The notes below the pieces were generated by a model. It did not search any database, was not told where the DNA came from, and saw only the letters and a program-made list of their open reading frames with translations. The position numbers were made by a program, and so were the translations under genes. Below, piece after piece: positions 12,462 through 23,535 of a DNA stretch of 35,357 nt. Source of the DNA: a virus (Duplodnaviria; Caudoviricetes). Where the stretch lies: positions 1-35,357 of IMG/VR virus record IMGVR_UViG_3300032277_000036, one strand, 5' to 3'. Within the stretch, counting starts at the first letter, position 1, and every line of letters begins with the position of its first letter.

Positions 12462-12487
12462 GTGGTTAGACCACAACCGAGGTGACT

Positions 12488-13060
12488 ATGGGAAAGCTGG
12501 AAAAGAAGATTGAAGAGGAACATGGTCGGACGTTGACCAACCGACAGCGCACCTTTGCGAGGCACATCGTCGAAGGGATTTACTCAAACGCAGAGGCGGC
12601 TCGAAAGGCTGGGTATTCAGCAGAAGTGGCGAACACCAGCGCGTCAAAGCTGCTCAACGGCAGAGATTATCCCCATGTTTTGGAATATGTGCAGGAGCTC
12701 CGAGAGGAGAGGCAGCGCCGTTACGGTGTCACCACTATCGGTCAGTTAGAACGGCTGTACAAGCTGTCATCTGGCGCAGAGGAGGCGGGACAGTTTTCTG
12801 CCGCCATCAATGCTGAAAAAATTCGCGCTGCGCTGGGTGGCCTCACGGTCGACCGGAGAGAAAACATAAACACCATTGATCAGATGTCACGGGACGAGAT
12901 TACAGCCCGACTTGCTGCGTTGCAGAAACAGTATCCGCAAGCCTTTGTGATCGAAGGGACAGCAAAGGACATAACACCAGATGAGCAAGGGACCGGAGGC
13001 GAACTTTTGGCAATCGATCAGGACAAATCTGCCGAGCAAGTGCTTCGCCACGAGGATTGA
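12488..13060 (+). CDS. terS: Terminase small subunit
   Basis: LTNRQRTFARHIV...SNAEAARKAGYS...ASKLL N-terminal HTH typical of Terminase_2-family TerS; AAINAEK motif. Confidence 0.82.
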   Translation: MGKLEKKIEEEHGRTLTNRQRTFARHIVEGIYSNAEAARKAGYSAEVANTSASKLLNGRDYPHVLEYVQELREERQRRYGVTTIGQLERLYKLSSGAEEAGQFSAAINAEKIRAALGGLTVDRRENINTIDQMSRDEITARLAALQKQYPQAFVIEGTAKDITPDEQGTGGELLAIDQDKSAEQVLRHED

Positions 13061-13373: not shown

Positions 13374-13540
13374 AGCCCTGCGGCCCCTCGCGCCGTTTTA
13401 CACCCGCGAGGCGACCGAGGAACGAGGGAGCCGAGCTCACTAAACATGTGTCGAGGAACGAGACTCAATTTAAACAAACACTTATCGAGCGACTAGCGAG
13501 ATTCATTTTAGACTAAACTTTGTCACGCGACTAGCGTGAC
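13347..13540 (+). repeat. Cluster of short repeats and mini-hairpins
   Basis: GCCCTGCGGCCCCTYGCGC at 13347 and 13375; CGAGGAACGAG at 13416 and 13452; GCGACTAGCG at 13489 and 13527. Confidence 0.75.
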
Positions 13541-13559: not shown

Positions 13560-13578
13560 GGGGGAGCCGAAGCCCCCC
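13560..13578 (-). terminator. C(UUCG)G hairpin at the end of the small-gene operon
   Basis: Minus strand GGGGGGC-TTCG-GCTCCCC right after the 13584 stop; weak U-tail; 16-nt core repeated at 14567-14582. Confidence 0.55.
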
Positions 13579-13583
13579 GTTAG

Positions 13584-13814
13584 TTACCAGTAGTTGCGTG
13601 TTGTTCTGGCTTCGGTTTCGAACATCTCCTCCGCCATGGCCTCCTCTTCCTTGTCGACGGCGCTACCGTCTGTTTGCAGGATATCTTTGAGCTCACCTCC
13701 TGACAGTCCGAGCATCCCGGCGTATGTCAGGATTGAGAGGTCAGGGTTGCTGTCGTAGTAGTCGCGGATCTCGTCGTCGGTCCATTCGAACATTGGTCTC
13801 ATGACATTCTCCAC
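13584..13814 (-). CDS. Hypothetical acidic protein
   Basis: 76-aa ORF in operon (start may be ATG 13802). Confidence 0.7.
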   Translation of the reverse strand: MENVMRPMFEWTDDEIRDYYDSNPDLSILTYAGMLGLSGGELKDILQTDGSAVDKEEEAMAEEMFETEARTTRNYW

Positions 13815-13999
13815 ACTCTAATTTTGTCATCTATGGTTCGTGCAGCGATTGTGAAACCCATACCCAATGCTGCTTTTCTCATTGACATATATTGAGATTT
13901 GTTGTCGAGGAGGACGCTGTCTCCAACGCTCATTTTGTTTAAAAGGTTTTTCCATACTGAGCGGCGTAGTGGAATTGGAATGTTCTTTTCGATTCTCAT
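13799..13999 (-). CDS. Small putative DNA-binding phage protein (MRIEKNIPIP...MSVGDSV...IRVWR)
   Basis: Recognisable IEK.IPIP / M.VGDS / RVWR motif; AGGAGG RBS. Confidence 0.75.
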   Translation of the reverse strand: MRIEKNIPIPLRRSVWKNLLNKMSVGDSVLLDNKSQYMSMRKAALGMGFTIAARTIDDKIRVWRMS

Positions 14000-14008
14000 G
14001 TTGTCCTC

Positions 14009-14206
14009 CTATTGGAACAGTGTGTCGTATTCGTGGGTTGAAAGGAAGTGTCGGAAGTTATTGTCGACACCGAGTTGGTACGCGTCCCATTCGTCACGGA
14101 ACTGCTGTGCATCGTCGCCCTGTATGAAGAACGACCAGCCTGCTTCGTACTCGCGGACCTCGACACCATAGCCGAGGTCCTTCATCTGATATCCGCCTAT
14201 GCGCAT
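14009..14206 (-). CDS. Hypothetical protein
   Basis: 65-aa ORF in operon; start uncertain. Confidence 0.65.
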   Translation of the reverse strand: MRIGGYQMKDLGYGVEVREYEAGWSFFIQGDDAQQFRDEWDAYQLGVDNNFRHFLSTHEYDTLFQ

Positions 14207-14544
14207 GGTAGCGGTTCCATGGCCCGGAGCTCACTGAGGTAGAAGTGATCGTGGTCTCCGAGGGGCATCATCTTCTCGCCACCTAGTACCAGATACTGTG
14301 CGTGATCGCGTTGTGCTACGCCCCAGTATCGATACCCGAATGTGGTGAGTATGCCGTTGATGCGCTCGCGTGTTGTGACGGTGGGCCAACCTGCGAGGGT
14401 GAAGCCGATGTCTCCGTCGAGTGTGCGCCATGCGATGCGGTTGTTGTGTAGCCAGACGATCTCGCCATTGGTGCGTGTTCGTGCTGCGTTGGCTGCGGTG
14501 CGACGGAAGAAAGCCCGTGCGATCTTGTCAGTTTCTTGTCTCAT
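14197..14544 (-). CDS. Conserved hypothetical phage protein (LHNNRIA...GWPTVTTRERIN)
   Basis: GW.T.TT.ER.N motif common in small phage proteins; AAGGA RBS. Confidence 0.75.
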   Translation of the reverse strand: MRQETDKIARAFFRRTAANAARTRTNGEIVWLHNNRIAWRTLDGDIGFTLAGWPTVTTRERINGILTTFGYRYWGVAQRDHAQYLVLGGEKMMPLGDHDHFYLSELRAMEPLPCA

Positions 14545-14564
14545 TAGATAGATCCTTTGAAGGT

Positions 14565-14584
14565 GCGGGAGCCGAAGCCCCCGC
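14565..14584 (-). other. Intercistronic C(UUCG)G hairpin
   Basis: Minus strand GCGGGGGC-TTCG-GCTCCCGC with no U-tract. Confidence 0.6.
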
Positions 14585-14592
14585 GGTTGAAG

Positions 14593-14823
14593 TTAGTCGA
14601 CTGTGACCGAGAAGGTGTTGTTGCCAAACCAGTTGGTAATCTTGTGGTCGATGTCGAACTCCTCGATCATGTCTGCAATCTCTGACGAGTGATCGTAGAT
14701 GTCGAAGGATGTGGAGTTCATACCCTCCTGAAGATCGTTGACCTTCTGCTCGATACGTTCGTCGACCTTCTCCTGAATGATTGCCATGATCAGGTCAGCT
14801 AGTTGGTTAGTTTGATTTTCCAT
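14593..14823 (-). CDS. Hypothetical acidic protein
   Basis: 76 aa, AGGAG RBS. Confidence 0.72.
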   Translation of the reverse strand: MENQTNQLADLIMAIIQEKVDERIEQKVNDLQEGMNSTSFDIYDHSSEIADMIEEFDIDHKITNWFGNNTFSVTVD

Positions 14824-14977
14824 CTGTGATCTCCTGTGTTAGATGGGCTGCTAGATTAAATGCCATGCAAGCGGCGACCATGATGTGTGCTCGGTCGCTT
14901 GCATTGTGCGCGTTGATCCACTCGAGTAGTTCGTCCCACGACTTGGGTGTGTGGAACATGCCGATTGGCTCAAGCAT
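14807..14977 (-). CDS. Hypothetical protein (MLEPIGMFHTPKSWDEL...)
   Basis: AAGGAGG RBS before ATG 14977. Confidence 0.68.
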   Translation of the reverse strand: MLEPIGMFHTPKSWDELLEWINAHNASDRAHIMVAACMAFNLAAHLTQEITDGKSN

Positions 14978-15236
14978 CAATAGATTCCTCCTTCTTGATT
15001 GTGTACTCGACGACGGTGTCAAACTTGGCGACATCGTACTTGCTGTCGTGCTGCATCGATTTGAATGCTTCTGCTAGGATCTGACGTAGATCCTTGTGCA
15101 ACTGACGCTCAGAGCTCCAGCCGTTCCACTCGGCACCGTGCTCGGTCATGAGGCGGTCGATTGTTTTGAGCTCCCGAAGTGTAAGGTTAAGGCTGATTGG
15201 TAGTTGATCGATGTCTGTATAGTTTTTAGTAGCCAT
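14970..15236 (-). CDS. Hypothetical protein, first gene downstream of the structured element
   Basis: 88 aa, strong AGGAGG RBS (15242-15247). Confidence 0.75.
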   Translation of the reverse strand: MATKNYTDIDQLPISLNLTLRELKTIDRLMTEHGAEWNGWSSERQLHKDLRQILAEAFKSMQHDSKYDVAKFDTVVEYTIKKEESIDA

Positions 15237-15257
15237 TGTGGCCTCCTATGTTTGAGT

Positions 15258-15600
15258 TACTACAACGCACATGGAACTTCGTGCATTGTCCCATCAACTA
15301 GCCGCACGTTTAATCGCGCCGAGGAACGAGGGAATCGTCAAGGGGGTTTAGCAGAGCGGCGCAAAATGTGAGATCTCAGGTTCTGATGCTACGTCATGGG
15401 CTCACTGGCACTGAGGGTGATCCTTGGCGCGAGGCACCCATGACGTTGCGTCAGGTTCTGTGATGTTGCATTTTGGGCAAACTCCCGACCCCTCACGCGC
15501 ACATAAGCGTAGCGTTGGAGCATGTGGGGTTGACGACGCATTAAACGGGATGGCCTCCCGGGGGGACAATCCGCACGGGGGTTCATGTGTGTGTGTAGTA
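15258..15600 (+). other. Large branched foldback (structured ssDNA or ncRNA), domain 1
   Basis: Nested complementary pairs: 15258-15292 with 15563-15600, 15307-15314 with 15540-15547, 15336-15341 with 15530-15535, 15342-15349 with 15479-15486, and a 39-position unbulged stem 15362-15400 with 15437-15475. Confidence 0.8.
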
Positions 15601-15605
15601 GTCTA

Positions 15606-15922
15606 GGCGCTGGCGCACTCAGGCAGGCTGACCAGCGGAAGAGGCTCCATGCACGACGAGACACCCAAGACGCGAGAACATCTGAAGGATGTTCCCGTCG
15701 CCGGGTGGATCGCCGTAGCATGGAGAGGGAGCGCAGGCCCTGACTGGGCGCATATTGGTACGGTTCCGCTGTCTCTCAGTGCGTGATCCAACGGGGCTAT
15801 AGCCGTTGGCCGACTGTCAGTTCGGAGACTGACACGGGCCGAAGGACCGTATGCGTCAAGGATCGAAGCCCGAAGGGCCAAGACCTGAAGGGGCTTGGTT
15901 CACGAGAGCCTGCCCGGACGCC
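15606..15922 (+). other. Multi-hairpin structured domain 2 with GAA/GGA triloops
   Basis: GGCAGGCT (15622-15629)/AGCCTGCC (15907-15914); CAGCGGAA (15633)/TTCCGCTG (15764); CTCCATGC (15645)/GCATGGAG (15718); GAACATCT-GAA-GGATGTTC; CCAACGG/CCGTTGG; TGTCAG..C-GGA-G..CTGACA; GCCC-GAA-GGGC; CCAAG...CTTGG. Confidence 0.75.
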
Positions 15923-16155
15923 CACCCCCCACACCCCATCGATCAAATCCCCCCACCCCCATGGCACCTCTCTAATTATTCCCACGAGCCAAGGTGCAAA
16001 GAACTACACGCAAGGTACGCAGACACTGGACAGAGATCAGAGTGACAAGGCTCTGCTTACCTGATACACAGACATACTTGCCGGGGTTACTGGAGCATAT
16101 GGTATGGCTGGCGGGGCAGACCCCCCTCCCCCCCACCCCCCTTATATGACCCCCC
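15921..16155 (-). repeat. Two C-tract clusters (G-quadruplex-capable on minus strand)
   Basis: CCCACCCCCCACACCCC...CCCCCCACCCCC (15921-15960) and CCCCCCTCCCCCCCACCCCCC...CCCCCC (16121-16155). Confidence 0.65.
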
Positions 16156-16181
16156 GTTGGTGCGGTGTGCACCCTATAATG

Positions 16182-16210
16182 TTGGTTTTGTAAATTATTT
16201 CGGGTATAAT
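16182..16210 (+). promoter_or_regulatory. Sigma70-like promoter TTGGTT-N17-TATAAT for the rightward structural arm
   Basis: Perfect -10 at 16205-16210; a second TATAAT at 16175-16180. Confidence 0.6.
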
Positions 16211-16502: not shown

Positions 16503-16963
16503 GGTATGAGGTAGTAACGAGGATGACGTTGCCTATTGAGGTGGCTGTTTTACGTTTGGGTAAGTTTTCGCATCGGGAGAGTGCGTATAGTCATTTGGGT
16601 TTTAACGCGACTAAGTTGTTGAAGGAGGCCAAGTTATTTGCGACTACGGACAACCGTTTATTTATTCTTGCTTGGGATGGTGATAAGGCTGTTGGAGTGA
16701 TGGCTGCGATGGTTGCGGATTATTTTTTTAGTGATGACTTGGTAGCGAACGATTATTTGTGGTATGTTTTACCGGAGTACCGAGGATCGAAGGTTGGTTG
16801 GGAGTTATTGACGATGTATGAGCGGTGGTCCGCGGACCAAGGAACTGTTGATACTCGTGTTGGGATGACGTCTATGATTAACGCGGATGTTTTCAATGGT
16901 ATTATGGAGAAGCGTGGTTATAAGTGTATAGGCGCTAATTACCGCAAGAGGAGCCAAGCATGA
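16499..16963 (+). CDS. GNAT-family N-acyltransferase
   Basis: WYVLPEYRGSKVGWELL (acyl-CoA binding motif A) and EKRGY (motif B). Confidence 0.85.
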   Translation: MRYEVVTRMTLPIEVAVLRLGKFSHRESAYSHLGFNATKLLKEAKLFATTDNRLFILAWDGDKAVGVMAAMVADYFFSDDLVANDYLWYVLPEYRGSKVGWELLTMYERWSADQGTVDTRVGMTSMINADVFNGIMEKRGYKCIGANYRKRSQA

Positions 16964-19900
16964 ATCCTTTTCTGTTTAATTTTTTATTGGACCGTCGAGT
17001 TTTTGGTGGTGGAGACACGTCGACTGGTAACAGCAGCAGCGGCGACGATGGTGGCAGCGATACCAACCAAGACCGTATTAATGATCTGTACGCCGAGCAC
17101 GGTGACGACGTTTGGGACGAGGCTGGGGATGAGTTAAACGATTTATTAGAAGAGGGTCGAGACGCGACCTATACAGGCGGCAACGGCAACGGCACTACTA
17201 CGGGCGGCAACGGCACTACTACGGGCGGCAACGACGACGACGGCGGCAGCACTACTACTACTGTGAGTAGAGAGTATAAGACTACGGATAGCGGCTCTGT
17301 TTATTTTGTTGATGCGAACGGGGTTAATCAGTACGTTGCTGGATCCAACTGGGGTCAGGCTAATCCTTCGACTGATTTACAGCAGTATTTGGATTCGACT
17401 AATCACCCTCAGAAGGACACGGGTTCTTCTACTTCTGGGACCGCGACCACTGGACCTGTGACGGTTAGTGTAAGTGTAGCGAACGGCGACACATTGAGTG
17501 ATCTTGCTGTAACCTACAACACGACGGTTGCGGCGATTGCGAACGCTAGTAACATTAATTTAGCGGATGTTAACGACATTAACATTGGAGATACGTTAAC
17601 GATACCGAGTGGTTCGAACACGACTGGTGAGAGTATTTATGTAGATGTTCCCCAGAGTGTGTTTGACGAGAAGACGCCTGACGGTGCTATATCTGTTGAC
17701 GGAAGTTTTTACGATTCGTTTGGGAACTCATATTCTACTGTTGAGGATCGGAACTATGGCGATGATCAATTATTAAAGCAGGAGTCTTGGAGTAATCCGG
17801 ACAACTGGGAGGTTGTGGTTGATGAGCAGGGTCGCTTGGATCAGAAGTACACTGGTGACATGACGGCTCCGGACAGCGGTGCGTACACGGTTCCGAGTTT
17901 GTCTACGTTGGCTGCGGCTGGAAACAACGACAGTGGTTATGACTTAAAGGTTATCAACGGCACGACGTACATGGAGGACAAGTACGGTCAGACGTATCGT
18001 GACGAAGATGATTTAATTACTGGTGAGAAGGACGTTGATGACCGGGTTGATTCGTACAATAACGCGAGCAACTGGCGGATTGATGCGGACGAGCGCGGCG
18101 TTCCACAGTTAATTTATGTAGGTGGTGAGACGGCTCCTCCTGCGAGTGCGTATAGCGGTGGTTACGTTAACGTGCCGAGTTTAATGGACGTAGATTCTGC
18201 GCAGGAAGAGGCAGGTTTAAGTGACGTTTATTTGGATCTTGAGGAGATTGGCGGCGAGATCAAGGTTTTAGATTCGTATGGCAATATATTTGACGATGCG
18301 GATGCTGCGGCTGCGAATGATGTTAAGGTGCTGGATCGTGCGGATCCGGAGAATTATGAGATTGGCATAGATCCGGAAACTGGGGCGTTAGAGACTAAAT
18401 ACGTTGGAACGTATTCCGACAGTGATATTGTGGCGAACTCTACTGCGGACACTTTTAAAAAGGTATTTCCTACTTTTATTCTAAACACTCCTCAGAATTT
18501 AGCCGCGGTCCGTGGGACCATGGACCCTGTATCGAGAAGCACGGTCATTAACGAGGACATGGCGTATTATTTGTCTCGTGTTACGGGCCGTGATGTTTCG
18601 GAGTTAGTTGGACAGCAGGTATCGTTGAATGATTTGGGTGTATTGGATGCGCTTGGTTATACGTTAGACAACGATGCGTCTCAATATGTTGCTTCTGAGT
18701 TTACGACTGTTGGTTCGGACATGCCGACGTTGACTGCGGAGGAAGTTGCGGATCCGACGTTGATTGATATTTCGATTGATTCGATGCGCAATCTTGCGAC
18801 GGGTTTTACGACTACGTTTACGGGTGCGCTTCAAGGGTTGGAGATAGCCAAGGGGGCTAACGACGATTTAACCTTGCAGGGTTATGTGGACAACATGGCT
18901 CGTTTAGGTGGGGATCGAGAAGACATAGACGAAAGAATTGCTTCTATAAACGCTCAGTTAGAACAAATAGCTTCGGAAGAGGGAATTAGTTTAGCAGAAG
19001 CGAAGGATTATCGTGGAGATTTGGCGGGACAACTAATTATGTTGGATCAGTCAAAACTAGGGATTGAAACGGACATAATGCTTCAACAGTCCGCGTTTGA
19101 GGATTTAGTTGAGCAGGCTGGTATTCCGTTAAACGAGCGTTTTTACTTTGAGTTGGGCGAGTATCTTCAAGAGAATGCGTCTAACTTCATTGGTGAAGTC
19201 GAGAATCCGGAAGTCTTTACGGTTAAATTGTTTGGTGCGTTGGGCAACGCGTTGGGTTTTGCCACTTCGGCGGCGGGTGCTTCGGTTGGTGCGACGTTAG
19301 TAACGGGGAACCCTGTATCGGGAACCATTGCTGGTACAGCTTCAGCCGCGATCCTTGGTTCTTTGGGCAATGCTGCTTCGGTATATAAGGAAGCCGCGCA
19401 GAGTGGAGCTACTGAGGAGCAAGCTCGTCGGGTTTCACAACTTGGACTTGTTATTGGCTCGGCGGAAGCTATTCCGATTGGTAAGGTTCTGGGCAAATTG
19501 CCGCCTAATTTTGCGGATTTGTTTGTAAACAAGGTTGTAAAGTCTGCAGTAAAGTTTGCGGAAGAGGGTGTTGTTGAAGGTGCGCAGGAGGTTATGACCA
19601 GCGTATTAAACGACATGGCGGCGAAAGGCGTTTACGACCCTGATCGACAGGTGTTCAGTGCGGATTTAACGGAAGACGCTTTAATCGGGTTCTTGGTTGG
19701 CGGTGTAACTAACGCGGGACTAGGGGCGTTAACTTCAAGCGAAAAACAAAAAATCGCTAACGACACGGGTATAACTGTTGATGAGTTAAACACAGCGATT
19801 AACAACCCTGTTTTGTTTGCGGATGTTGCGGTTGATAACGGCATAACAAAAGAGACTATCGATCAGTTGCTTGCGGATGGCATGAACATCTCAAAGATTG

Positions 19901-22900
19901 TTAGTGATTTTAAATCGGTTACGGACACCGCAGCAAATCCTAATGGCACGACGGTTGAGGTTTTGGCAAACCAGAGTTCGTTTAACGATACGAAGGTTGT
20001 CGATGGATCGGGGAACGCGGCTATTGTTTATGGCAACCCGGCGTCGAATAGTTTCACGGCAACGCCCACGACGGAGGGGTCTTCTGGTGTATTTGTGAAT
20101 ATCACCAATCCGTTTACCATTGATGGGATAAACAACGATACGGGGTTCAACAACCTTGTGGATATCTTTGGAGAAGACACAGCCAACAGCATTAAGGAAG
20201 AATACAACGATACGGGGACTGTGACTGTTACGAATGACATGGTCGATACGATTGTAAATAACGGCTACGACGGGATCGTTAACAACGACACTGGGGCGGT
20301 AACGGTTACGGACAATTCCAATGTATCGACGGTAACGGAAGAAGAGTCGACCACGGACAATACGGTTGTTGCCACTCGTCCTGAGTGGAAGAACGAGATG
20401 GACCAGATGTATGCCACGATGGGTGGTATTAGTTTGGACGAGGCTCAACGGATCGCGGACCAGTATGGTGTGCCGATTACGGAGTTCGGGGATTATTACA
20501 AGGAAATGGTTGCTGTTAACCAGCCTTGGAAACAGGCTATTCTTGATAACTACTTGATGAACGGTCGGGTGGACTTCGATACGATCAAGCAGATCGAGGC
20601 TGATTTTGGAATTACGACCAACGAGTTCAATGATTTCTATAAGAAGCTGTCTATTGCGAGTGCCGATGGCTTTGATGCTGGGATCTTGGACGCGTTTGAA
20701 GGCGAGATTGATGACCTTGGTGGCACAATTGGGGTGCTCGAGGGTCAGCTTGACACGGCTCAAGATGCGGCGAACTGGGTAAACAGTCAGCTTGATGCGG
20801 ACAAGAGCCGCAATGAGATTATCAACACATTGAAATCGGAGGGCGGATTTAGTCAAACTGAAGCGGCTAAGTTGTATGACTCGATTTATGGGTTCCGTGA
20901 GACGATTGGCGGCTTGGAAACGGACATTACGGGTCTTGAGACAGACGTTGATACGCTTACTGGAGAGCGGGACTTTGCTGAAGGGGCGTATGGCGTAATA
21001 AACGATGCGCTTGCGAGTGAGACGGATCGTCAGGATATTATTAATAATCTGGTTGAGAACGGGTTTGACAGTGCTTCGGCGGCATCTTTGGTTGATACGG
21101 TACAGCAGATCCGCGATACGGATGCTCAGTTGCGCAGCGAAAAAGGTTTTGCGCAGGGCGCGTACAACTATGTAGAGACTAGACTGGCGGACAACGCAAC
21201 CAGAGAAGAAATCTTTGCAGAGTTAAAGGACAATGGGTACACGGATGCGACGGCGAACACGTTGCTCGATGACATCCAAGGGGTGTTCAACGACAAGGCT
21301 GCGCTGGTTACGGACGTGTCGTTCTCTCAAAACGCGTATGCACTGGTTAATGCGCAGCTAGACGCTGGTAAAACCCCGGCAGAGATCGTAGAGTTGTTGG
21401 GAGAAAACAACTTCCCGACAGACTTAGCCCAAGGGCTTGTGGACAGCATACAAACTTACCGAGACACCATCGGCGGTTTGGAAACGGACGTTGAAACGGG
21501 TGAGGGTTTAACGCAGTTTGCCCAACAGGCTTACGATTATGTCAACGGACAGTTGGATGCGGAGACTTCGCTAGACGATATTGTCGCGGATTTAATCGAT
21601 AACGGTTATTCTGAGGCCGGGGCTAACGCTCTGGTTACGAACATTGATGGGATGCGTACAAATCTGTCCGCGGCGGAGACTTTGCTGGGTACAGCCAACG
21701 CAAATCAGTTGTTTGGGCAGACGGCGTATAGTTTTGTCAATGAGCAGCTAGAACTTATTGCAAATCAGGACCCGGATGCCGAGGTTCAGCTTTCTGAGAA
21801 CGACATTATTGCCAAGTTGGTAGAGAATGGGTTCTCCGAGGACAACGCGGCGACGTTGGTAGGCAATGTAACCACCATTCGGACTACAGAAACCACACTG
21901 CGAGACCAGATTGACGGCCTTGAGGCGGAGAATACGTTTGCCGAGGGTGCGTATGACTACGTTAACACGCGTTTGGACGCGATGTTGGGCCAAGATCCGG
22001 ACGCCGAGGTGCAGATTACCCCGGAATCCATTGTAAATGAGCTTGTTGAGAATGGATTTGACCAAACTACGGCTGAAAGCCTAGTTAGCAATGTCACGAC
22101 GGTTAAGGATAAGGTTGCGGACCTTGGGATGCAGCTTGATACGCTTGGCACGGAGGCGAGTTTCGCGCAACGTGCGTATAGTTACGTCAATTCCATGTTC
22201 GATCAGGGCAAAACGGCGGAAGAAATCTCCAGTTCCTTGGTTGAGAAGGGGTTTGCGGAAGATACGGCGTCTACTTTGGTTACGAGTGTCGACGGAACGC
22301 GGACCACGCTTGCTGGTTTGGAGACGGACTTAGGAACGGCGCAGGATCAGCGGACATTTGCGCAGAGAGCCTTTGATTTTGTCAACCAACAGTTAGATGG
22401 CGAGGTATCGGTAGACGATATCCGTCAGGATTTGCTTGATAACGGGTTTTCGGAGCTAGATGCGGACGCATTGATTACGGATGCTACGGATATCCGGTCA
22501 AATACGGACCTTTTGGAGGCTAATAACAGCTTCGCGCAGGGTGCATATGGGTTTATTAACGAGCAATTAGAGAGTGGTTCTCAGACTACGGATATCATTC
22601 AGGAGATGATTGATAACGGATTTGGGTACGATAAGGCTCAATCCATGGTTACGAACGTGGTAAATGTGCAAAACGAGGTGGATACACTGTCTGATGCACT
22701 GGGTATCATGGAAGGAAGAGCCGAGTTTGCGCAGACTTCGTTTGATTACATCAATAACCAGCTAGACAACAACGTCACAGAGGATGCGTTGCTTAATGAT
22801 CTGGTAGAAAACTACGGGTTTACTGCGGACAACGCGCAGAATTTTGTGGACTCGGTACAAGACACGCGTTTCCGTGAGAGCGAGTTACAGCGGATTAAGA

Positions 22901-23535
22901 CGGCGACGACGACAGGAACTACGTTTGACTTTGCTTCAGCCACGGCGGGGGCACCGGAAGACGAGGGCGACGAAGATCAGGTAGCTCCGACGACGGATGG
23001 TCCTTTTGCCCCGATTACTCGCCCGGATCCGACAACCACGACTACACCAGCCACGGCGGTGGGAGGAGTTGGTGGAGACGGCGACGGCGGCACTTATGTT
23101 GGTGGTCAGGCCGTAGAGTTAGACGAGTTTGGAAATCCGATCCTGACCTTCGATCCGTTTGGTCGTCCGGTAGGAACGTACACAACGCAGCCTACACAGC
23201 CTGTTGGTCCGTTTGACGCGTATGCGATGCAGATGCCCGAGACTCCTGCCTTTAATCCGCAGCAGGCGCGTTTAGGTCCACAGCCTACGCAGGTTACGTT
23301 GGACGAGGCTGGATTTATTACTGAGCCTGTGTCGTACATTCCGGAGCAGGTTCCAACGGATCCGACACCATATTACAGCCCTCAGTTTAATCAGTTTACT
23401 GAGGTTCCCGTGGGCTACGGAGCGACGATGGTGCCTCCGAGCTTTATTCAGCAGCCACAACCTGCTATAAACGAAGTAACGCAAGAAGGAATAGGGGCGT
23501 TTTTAGGCAGAACGCCGCCTGTAGGAGTAGCTTAA
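16960..23535 (+). CDS. Giant acidic multidomain protein (LysM, hydrophobic segment, degenerate ART-like domain, 11 helical repeats); probable virion/injected protein
   Basis: 2191 aa; LysM VANGDTLSDLAVTYNTTVAAIANASNI...INIGDTLTIP (~17464-17607); Gly/Ala hydrophobic helices ~19230-19740; repeats ~20755-22860. Confidence 0.85.
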   Translation: MNPFLFNFLLDRRVFGGGDTSTGNSSSGDDGGSDTNQDRINDLYAEHGDDVWDEAGDELNDLLEEGRDATYTGGNGNGTTTGGNGTTTGGNDDDGGSTTTTVSREYKTTDSGSVYFVDANGVNQYVAGSNWGQANPSTDLQQYLDSTNHPQKDTGSSTSGTATTGPVTVSVSVANGDTLSDLAVTYNTTVAAIANASNINLADVNDINIGDTLTIPSGSNTTGESIYVDVPQSVFDEKTPDGAISVDGSFYDSFGNSYSTVEDRNYGDDQLLKQESWSNPDNWEVVVDEQGRLDQKYTGDMTAPDSGAYTVPSLSTLAAAGNNDSGYDLKVINGTTYMEDKYGQTYRDEDDLITGEKDVDDRVDSYNNASNWRIDADERGVPQLIYVGGETAPPASAYSGGYVNVPSLMDVDSAQEEAGLSDVYLDLEEIGGEIKVLDSYGNIFDDADAAAANDVKVLDRADPENYEIGIDPETGALETKYVGTYSDSDIVANSTADTFKKVFPTFILNTPQNLAAVRGTMDPVSRSTVINEDMAYYLSRVTGRDVSELVGQQVSLNDLGVLDALGYTLDNDASQYVASEFTTVGSDMPTLTAEEVADPTLIDISIDSMRNLATGFTTTFTGALQGLEIAKGANDDLTLQGYVDNMARLGGDREDIDERIASINAQLEQIASEEGISLAEAKDYRGDLAGQLIMLDQSKLGIETDIMLQQSAFEDLVEQAGIPLNERFYFELGEYLQENASNFIGEVENPEVFTVKLFGALGNALGFATSAAGASVGATLVTGNPVSGTIAGTASAAILGSLGNAASVYKEAAQSGATEEQARRVSQLGLVIGSAEAIPIGKVLGKLPPNFADLFVNKVVKSAVKFAEEGVVEGAQEVMTSVLNDMAAKGVYDPDRQVFSADLTEDALIGFLVGGVTNAGLGALTSSEKQKIANDTGITVDELNTAINNPVLFADVAVDNGITKETIDQLLADGMNISKIVSDFKSVTDTAANPNGTTVEVLANQSSFNDTKVVDGSGNAAIVYGNPASNSFTATPTTEGSSGVFVNITNPFTIDGINNDTGFNNLVDIFGEDTANSIKEEYNDTGTVTVTNDMVDTIVNNGYDGIVNNDTGAVTVTDNSNVSTVTEEESTTDNTVVATRPEWKNEMDQMYATMGGISLDEAQRIADQYGVPITEFGDYYKEMVAVNQPWKQAILDNYLMNGRVDFDTIKQIEADFGITTNEFNDFYKKLSIASADGFDAGILDAFEGEIDDLGGTIGVLEGQLDTAQDAANWVNSQLDADKSRNEIINTLKSEGGFSQTEAAKLYDSIYGFRETIGGLETDITGLETDVDTLTGERDFAEGAYGVINDALASETDRQDIINNLVENGFDSASAASLVDTVQQIRDTDAQLRSEKGFAQGAYNYVETRLADNATREEIFAELKDNGYTDATANTLLDDIQGVFNDKAALVTDVSFSQNAYALVNAQLDAGKTPAEIVELLGENNFPTDLAQGLVDSIQTYRDTIGGLETDVETGEGLTQFAQQAYDYVNGQLDAETSLDDIVADLIDNGYSEAGANALVTNIDGMRTNLSAAETLLGTANANQLFGQTAYSFVNEQLELIANQDPDAEVQLSENDIIAKLVENGFSEDNAATLVGNVTTIRTTETTLRDQIDGLEAENTFAEGAYDYVNTRLDAMLGQDPDAEVQITPESIVNELVENGFDQTTAESLVSNVTTVKDKVADLGMQLDTLGTEASFAQRAYSYVNSMFDQGKTAEEISSSLVEKGFAEDTASTLVTSVDGTRTTLAGLETDLGTAQDQRTFAQRAFDFVNQQLDGEVSVDDIRQDLLDNGFSELDADALITDATDIRSNTDLLEANNSFAQGAYGFINEQLESGSQTTDIIQEMIDNGFGYDKAQSMVTNVVNVQNEVDTLSDALGIMEGRAEFAQTSFDYINNQLDNNVTEDALLNDLVENYGFTADNAQNFVDSVQDTRFRESELQRIKTATTTGTTFDFASATAGAPEDEGDEDQVAPTTDGPFAPITRPDPTTTTTPATAVGGVGGDGDGGTYVGGQAVELDEFGNPILTFDPFGRPVGTYTTQPTQPVGPFDAYAMQMPETPAFNPQQARLGPQPTQVTLDEAGFITEPVSYIPEQVPTDPTPYYSPQFNQFTEVPVGYGATMVPPSFIQQPQPAINEVTQEGIGAFLGRTPPVGVA
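17185..17233 (+). repeat. In-frame 21-nt tandem repeat (GNGTTTG)
   Basis: GGCAACGGCACTACTACGGGC twice plus partial copies. Confidence 0.8.

Follow-up and report, generated by a model that had tools for sequence, protein, structure and literature searches.

Promoters that a host RNA polymerase uses on single-stranded DNA have been described from conjugative plasmids (PMC9849209, PMC12672017, PMC11541004). Class 1 comprises Frpo1/Frpo2 (ssp1a/b) and ssi1-3, in F, ColIb-P9 and pESBL (PMC9849209, PMC12672017, PMC11541004), and we name the F folds after PMC9849209. In F, such ssDNA promoters drive early genes and prime synthesis, and they are silenced by conversion of the strand (PMC9849209, PMC12672017, bioRxiv 10.64898/2026.01.09.698686). 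A second class is represented by ssp2, upstream of klcA (PMC12672017; bioRxiv 10.64898/2026.01.09.698686). A literature search combining single-strand promoters with phage terms returned, among the records listed, no report from tailed dsDNA phages.

The window analysed here, a stretch of 35,357 nt with a GC content of 50%, represents 35 of the ~56 kb of a phage genome. Core genes are held in common with HTVC023P-type phages (PolA, an AEP primase, helicases, terL, GroES and capsid), and its terL matches those of HTVC023P, HTVC027P and 023Pt_psg01 at 54-60%; by these sequence comparisons, the phage is HTVC023P-like. A large fold-back sits at a divergence point, where small genes downstream of terS form a leftward cassette on one side and HNH and virion genes run rightward on the other (Table 1). 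As in Frpo class 1, this fold of ~350 nt on the template strand abuts the first gene; the order of start codon, fold, small hairpins and a short element termed motif A is the same, and motif A is 74% alike over 66 nt. Both systems carry a variable small-gene cargo, which includes, in three relatives of the window phage, a DUF932 gene such as the one behind Frpo1 in F. Unlike class 1, the locus belongs to a tailed dsDNA phage without known ssDNA entry and has no conserved -10 element. The fold gave no blastn match to the F leading region and one chance match among 72,556 plasmids, and by sequence it is not a member of Frpo class 1. Features typical of Frpo elements of any class were present in silico: a large template-strand stem-loop upstream of an operon, a paired -35 box and no duplex promoter. 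With ssp2, the fold has in common that its boxes lie on the 3' arm and that their linear spacing is non-canonical (TTGCAT-15-TAAGAT in ssp2, by our own reading of the F sequence). However, ssp2 is rod-like with a clear -10, whereas the window fold forms a three-way junction and a bubble and has no homology to it. We propose, with a probability of roughly 0.55, that the fold-back serves the leftward cassette as a single-strand promoter of Frpo-like type, one that replaces the duplex promoter of relatives and lacks sequence homology to Frpo.

Table 1. Positions of the fold-back, its parts and neighbouring features in the window.
Feature	Position	Strand	Remarks
Terminase small subunit, terS (Terminase_2)	12482..13060	+	
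Cluster of tandem-GA/GNA mini-hairpins, far end of cassette	13406..13540	+	
Leftward cassette, small mostly unannotated genes	13584..15236	-	variable among relatives
First cassette gene, 88 aa, no family	14970..15236	-	ribosome-binding site 15242-15247
Branched fold-back (family 1), main finding	15258..15600	+	folding, tiled windows, covariation
Helix downstream of bubble, partner 15563-15570	15285..15292	+	predicted +1 of leftward transcript near 15289
Predicted pre-melted bubble, template side	15293..15300	+	sequence not conserved
Three-way junction: bulged C, 3-bp helix, tandem-GA/GAA mini-hairpin, unpaired GAA	15315..15334	+	conserved
Tandem-GA/GAA mini-hairpin within junction	15319..15331	+	~110-nt insert instead in L004/L017
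Template-arm partner of -35-like box	15335..15341	+	
Long apical stem	15362..15475	+	exchangeable; sequence differs among family members
Side arm, second junction	15489..15529	+	variable
-35-like box, 3' (non-template) arm	15530..15535	+	TTGACG 11/14; TTGACA, TTTACG, TTTGCG 1/14 each
Predicted bubble, non-template side	15555..15562	+	nt 20-27 past -35 box
GACAAT-type hexamer	15565..15570	+	A and T invariant 14/14; register set by eye
Further swappable hairpin modules of array	15620..15850	+	15600-15915 z -3.96
Motif A, 51-nt branched GNA-loop element	15860..15910	+	common to F, NAH7, inoviruses, microviruses
Core element	16083..16210		kept in array-bearing and promoter-bearing relatives

The nested arms reported in the earlier note were all found where it had placed them, and its apical stem (15362-15400/15437-15475) has 30 Watson-Crick pairs, 5 G.T pairs and 4 mismatches over 39 positions. 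The DNA fold of 15258-15600 reaches -84.3 kcal/mol (z -7.48), a value matched by none of 100 shuffles. Its stability also exceeds that of all 101 tiled 350-nt windows, the best of which (-72.1) itself lies inside the array described below. When 15240-15620 was folded against shuffles, z-scores were -5.74 (DNA, +), -4.04 (DNA, -), -6.53 (RNA, +) and -5.49 (RNA, -). Thus both strands fold and + folds better; the preference for + which the earlier note had read from the wobble pairs is borne out, yet the - strand also beats its shuffles. The strand difference of the fold-back is -16.4, against a largest value of -13.8 among the tiled windows (sd 6.6), and on a Watson-Crick-only skeleton of 14 representatives G.T exceeds A.C among the + strand mismatches (26 vs 8). 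The same arms were found in independent contigs, so the fold-back is no assembly artefact. The structure belongs to the template (+) DNA strand and is conserved. If instead the leftward mRNA, as - strand RNA from a duplex promoter further upstream, began with a structured 5' leader, two of these properties would also be expected, namely the RNA - score (z -5.49) and the end of the fold just before the ribosome-binding site. The wobbles and tandem GA pairs favour + and no upstream leftward promoter rises above background, and we regard a leader as the least probable of the readings considered here.

Relatives were collected by scanning viral, metagenome and genome collections with patterns, the metagenome scan covering 119 of ~300. 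Both arms were present in 38 distinct contexts, 37 of the fold-back type and 1 judged chance. The core pattern occurred 106 times in 185,579 genomes, once with a partner arm, a match also judged chance. One locus (L223) was added by eye, and 14 representatives were selected. Since retrieval relied on the 5' core plus four complementary bases, part of the pairing signal is built in. Over 16 anchored pairs in these representatives, 215 of 224 cells pair, compared with 181 +/- 4 when partners are permuted (0/10000), a permutation that ignores relatedness. A helix outside the retrieval criterion pairs at 5.64 of 6 positions when matched to its own partner and at 3.68 when matched to those of other members, and changes on both sides. 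The junction therefore covaries across the 14 representatives, as judged against permuted partners with kinship ignored. The bulged C, the base of the tandem-GA hairpin and the unpaired GAA are invariant. The junction hairpin (15319-15331), which loops out of the template path in the fold, tolerates inserts of up to ~110 nt, and the junction loops are mainly GAA, GTA, GTAA or TTTA. In L259, L288 and L402 the junction is not adopted in the ensemble.

Within the fold, the TTGAC-type box is paired with a probability above 0.7 in 11 of the 14 representatives. Mean cross-arm pairing past the box is 0.65-0.80 at nt 1-12, 0.17-0.33 at nt 20-24 and 0.66-0.79 at nt 28-35. The earlier note had placed an unpaired bubble about 19 nt from TTGACG, and the window indeed has 19 paired nt followed by an 8x8 bubble. 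By eye, the bubble is clear in ~7/14 representatives, while in L004 and L318 most of this stretch is paired. The dip in pairing fits a bubble from about -11 to -4, and the start would then fall on template base 30, 15289, a prediction derived from the canonical -35-to-+1 distance. From box to ATG, the linear distance of 99-197 nt becomes 80-96 nt after loop-out, vs 72-83 nt for the duplex promoters of relatives. No conserved -10 hexamer occurs 17 nt from the box in the 14 representatives, and no linear promoter was found in silico in the window's fold or in 11/14 members. The 35 nt that separate TTGACG from TAGTTG in the duplex were found as described, and TAGTTG itself was dropped as a -10 candidate: it is present in 1/14 representatives and is altered in a co-occurring strain too. 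GACAAT-type hexamers lie 27-32 nt from the box in most members. As a -10 box, GACAAT would need 10-12 nt looped out, which the model disfavours, and because the sampled spacer stays at 27-32 in most members we keep it only as a second register. In the model, the hexamer would form the start-site helix or, alternatively, a -10 box with 10-12 nt looped out. Other fold families have -35-like hexamers on 5' as well as 3' arms, so a test for boxes on the 3' arm does not discriminate across families. In one different fold family (L214 1107-1490 and L224), TTTACG-18-TATACT/TACACT lies on the 3' arm at canonical spacing; a template-side hairpin loops out, and as duplex the box pair would face rightward.

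6S RNA is a promoter-like duplex with a central bubble. The box and bubble of the fold resemble it, which raises the question whether the + strand acts as a non-coding RNA, an open-promoter mimic that sequesters the host sigma70 polymerase. RNA + has the best z-score of the four folds (-6.53), and one RNA-library contig spans 15309-15602; however, this contig is strandless and has the same depth as neighbouring genes. The fold-back has no Rfam match (3 chance matches only), its features point to DNA, with junction loops mainly GNA/GNNA, and unlike in 6S RNA its template arm enters real genes. A rightward promoter for such an RNA would need to lie in the first cassette gene, which in relatives belongs to several unrelated families, and the cassette would be left without a promoter. 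A 6S-like decoy is thus quite unlikely.

Among the cassette proteins a Pfam family passes the cut-off in 5 of 29 representatives, with no named anti-defence family found by Pfam in these 29, and all Atlas matches of the first gene are under 0.9. Between cassette genes, leftward UUCG hairpins (13561-13578 and 14566-14584) have no U-tracts and are of RNA type, on the mRNA strand.

What occupies the slot ahead of the cassette differs among relatives. In 10/11 inspected array-less relatives, whose terS is 76-91% alike and whose slot holds a short gap, TTGAC[AT]/TTTACA-17-CATAAC/TACATC points toward the cassette 72-83 nt from the start codon. A -10 without the T at -7, as in these motifs, is common in alphaproteobacteria (PMC7703639). 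Among 41 terS loci that reach the core, a regular-expression search that includes some near-duplicates found 4 with the array, 28 with the duplex motif and 9 with neither, so that the leftward duplex motif is present in 28/37 array-less relatives. On a terS tree, array-bearing rows are interspersed among promoter-bearing rows. With a promoter matrix built from the relatives' duplex promoters, for which training-set scores are circular, leftward promoter scores in 22 fold-bearing arrays were 3.2-10.4, none above a background of 3.1-15.2. The simplest reading of the slot comparison is that the fold does the job of a promoter. The duplex promoters of L022, L024, L031, L046 and L061 have a short palindrome over the -10 box, a possible operator, and the head-of-cassette gaps of the same five contain an A/T-rich UP-like tract. 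In the array-less L026 and L076, short GCGCCCT-type repeats occur in runs between cassette genes, downstream of terS. By eye, the divergent gap of HTVC027P holds no comparable array. A fold scan of the region after terS was discarded, its signal coming from a GC-rich gene and not from an array.

At 26 loci, a mosaic array lies between the first ribosome-binding site and the fixed 51-nt motif A, and relatives with the same first gene have different long folds at the same place. The fold and the other array modules gave chance matches only in plasmids and phages. Motif A, in turn, matches in 886 plasmids, 702 of them conjugative. In F it immediately follows each of Frpo1 and Frpo2 on the 3' side, with 471-472 nt to the next start codon (624 in the window), and it occurs 3 times in the NAH7 leading region, each time on the template strand. 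The viral matches comprise 50 loci: 30 belong to the same clade as the window phage, 14 are Rep_trans elements with motif A on the rep strand, and 6 are other; two microvirus non-coding stretches also contain it. In inoviruses and microviruses motif A is on the coding strand, and it is the coding strand of ssDNA phages that enters the cell single-stranded. The plasmid strands with motif A are those that enter cells single-stranded (PMC11541004). Motif A covaries (96.7% paired, with 4/14 pairs changed on both sides in 15 sequences), and its loops (n=39) are GNA in 19, GNNA in 5, GNAT in 11 and other in 4. The unrelated tailed phages L255 (2160-2630) and L261 have a fold-back, motif A, a consensus rightward promoter and terS in this order, and in L553 (3980-4080; Sphingopyxis phage VSN-002) and L227 a variant of motif A is found right upstream of an Erf/YqaJ recombination operon, on the template strand.

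In DNA, GNA/GNNA mini-hairpins have a far higher stability than in RNA (PMC13037366). Across 26 arrays the raw GNA count was 40 on + vs 9 on -, and tandem GA pairs numbered 18 vs 0. After dereplication, GNA made up 17 (+) vs 9 (-) of 128 triloops, against a background of 31 vs 35 of 389; the loops are therefore a moderate argument for DNA rather than RNA. A GNA scan of the whole window in 1.5-kb bins showed no enrichment. The company that motif A keeps with ssDNA-entry elements, as seen in sequence matches, is the stronger argument for DNA. At the far end of the cassette, the mini-hairpin cluster has up to three tandem GA pairs and is present in close relatives; it may be the outer boundary of an ssDNA zone.

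Motif A, for which no established name was found, is likely a host priming signal. Like the window, the primosome assembly site of phiX174 has, by eye, GAA mini-hairpins and a GGGGTTGAC string within an intergenic ssDNA stretch, with no further likeness seen. In another reading, the fold and the rest of the array together form a region for single-strand initiation (priming) or for replication pausing; its RNA would be no more than a primer, the cassette being expressed from elsewhere. The position of motif A on the strand with which ssDNA phages and plasmids enter would suit such a role, and in F Frpo transcripts prime while ssp2 stalls conversion (bioRxiv 10.64898/2026.01.09.698686). However, the fold sits right next to the ribosome-binding site, with a net spacing that is conserved, and takes the place of the duplex promoter, with no other leftward promoter found in the 22 arrays, and a purely priming or pausing role is unlikely.

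A promoter structure need not imply a free ssDNA phase. The hairpin promoters of the N4 virion polymerase have, like the window, a GNA-capped mini-hairpin on the template strand (PMC13037366). The same structure might be extruded in intact duplex by supercoiling and SSB, as at N4 early promoters, whose signature is template-strand GNA mini-hairpins (PMC13037366). In contrast to N4, with its own polymerase and small hairpin, the window combines a host-type -35 box with a large fold, and no polymerase was found in the 35 of ~56 kb. Extrusion of imperfect 343-nt arms would probably lose many pairs, no virion polymerase domain was found in the 2191-aa protein of the window, and a search of two long relatives for a T7-type polymerase found none, although the control of this search was silent. 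An SSB family was absent from two long relatives. We consider extrusion very unlikely and favour a promoter on free single-stranded DNA. The 2191-aa protein (16960-23535) is a LysM protein, acidic, with helical repeats and variable among relatives, in which no polymerase domain was found.

Because the fold region lies between terS and the HNH gene, with a conserved core between, its position suggests that genome ends may be nearby. This core element contains GGGGTTACT, a C-run/G-run and TATA-like boxes beside the HNH gene, and is a candidate terminus, origin or late promoter. Near-exact contigs are ~2-2.7x deeper left of 15900 than right of it in four DNA runs. We do not claim a terminal repeat since a fifth run is inconsistent and summing contig depth does not give a copy number.

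If the fold-back acts as a single-strand promoter, freeing of the + strand would let its 3' arm pair back as the non-template strand. The junction hairpin would loop out, and the host sigma70 polymerase would bind the -35 box, with the pre-melted bubble at about -11 to -4 substituting for a -10 box. A start near 15289 would give a leader of ~53 nt. By analogy with F, exposure of the + strand would switch the cassette on; if synthesis were then primed at motif A, on the 3' side of the fold, the - strand would be remade across the fold and the promoter switched off, as in F. As a first guess, the single strand could arise by resection of the - strand at a nearby genome end after entry; alternatively, it could come from strand displacement in replication or from terminal-repeat synthesis. 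The ssDNA-dependent control put forward in the earlier note thus keeps the support of the conserved geometry, the slot swap and the Frpo-linked motif A, and loses its TAGTTG -10. The fold shows no sequence likeness to Frpo/ssi, and in the model a + strand RNA folds no worse. A bolder and doubtful extension is that one phage lineage swapped its duplex early promoter for a plasmid-style single-strand promoter with priming modules, so that the first genes fire only on strand exposure at the entering genome end, through host nuclease attack or single-stranded delivery. This would amount to a leading region in a dsDNA phage.

Taken together, the fold family offers a new promoter architecture, a junction plus a bubble. 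Natural pairs of relatives in which duplex promoter vs fold is the only difference make the question directly testable. Should the fold function as predicted, a single-stranded phase at the early region would have gone unrecognised in an abundant group of marine phages.
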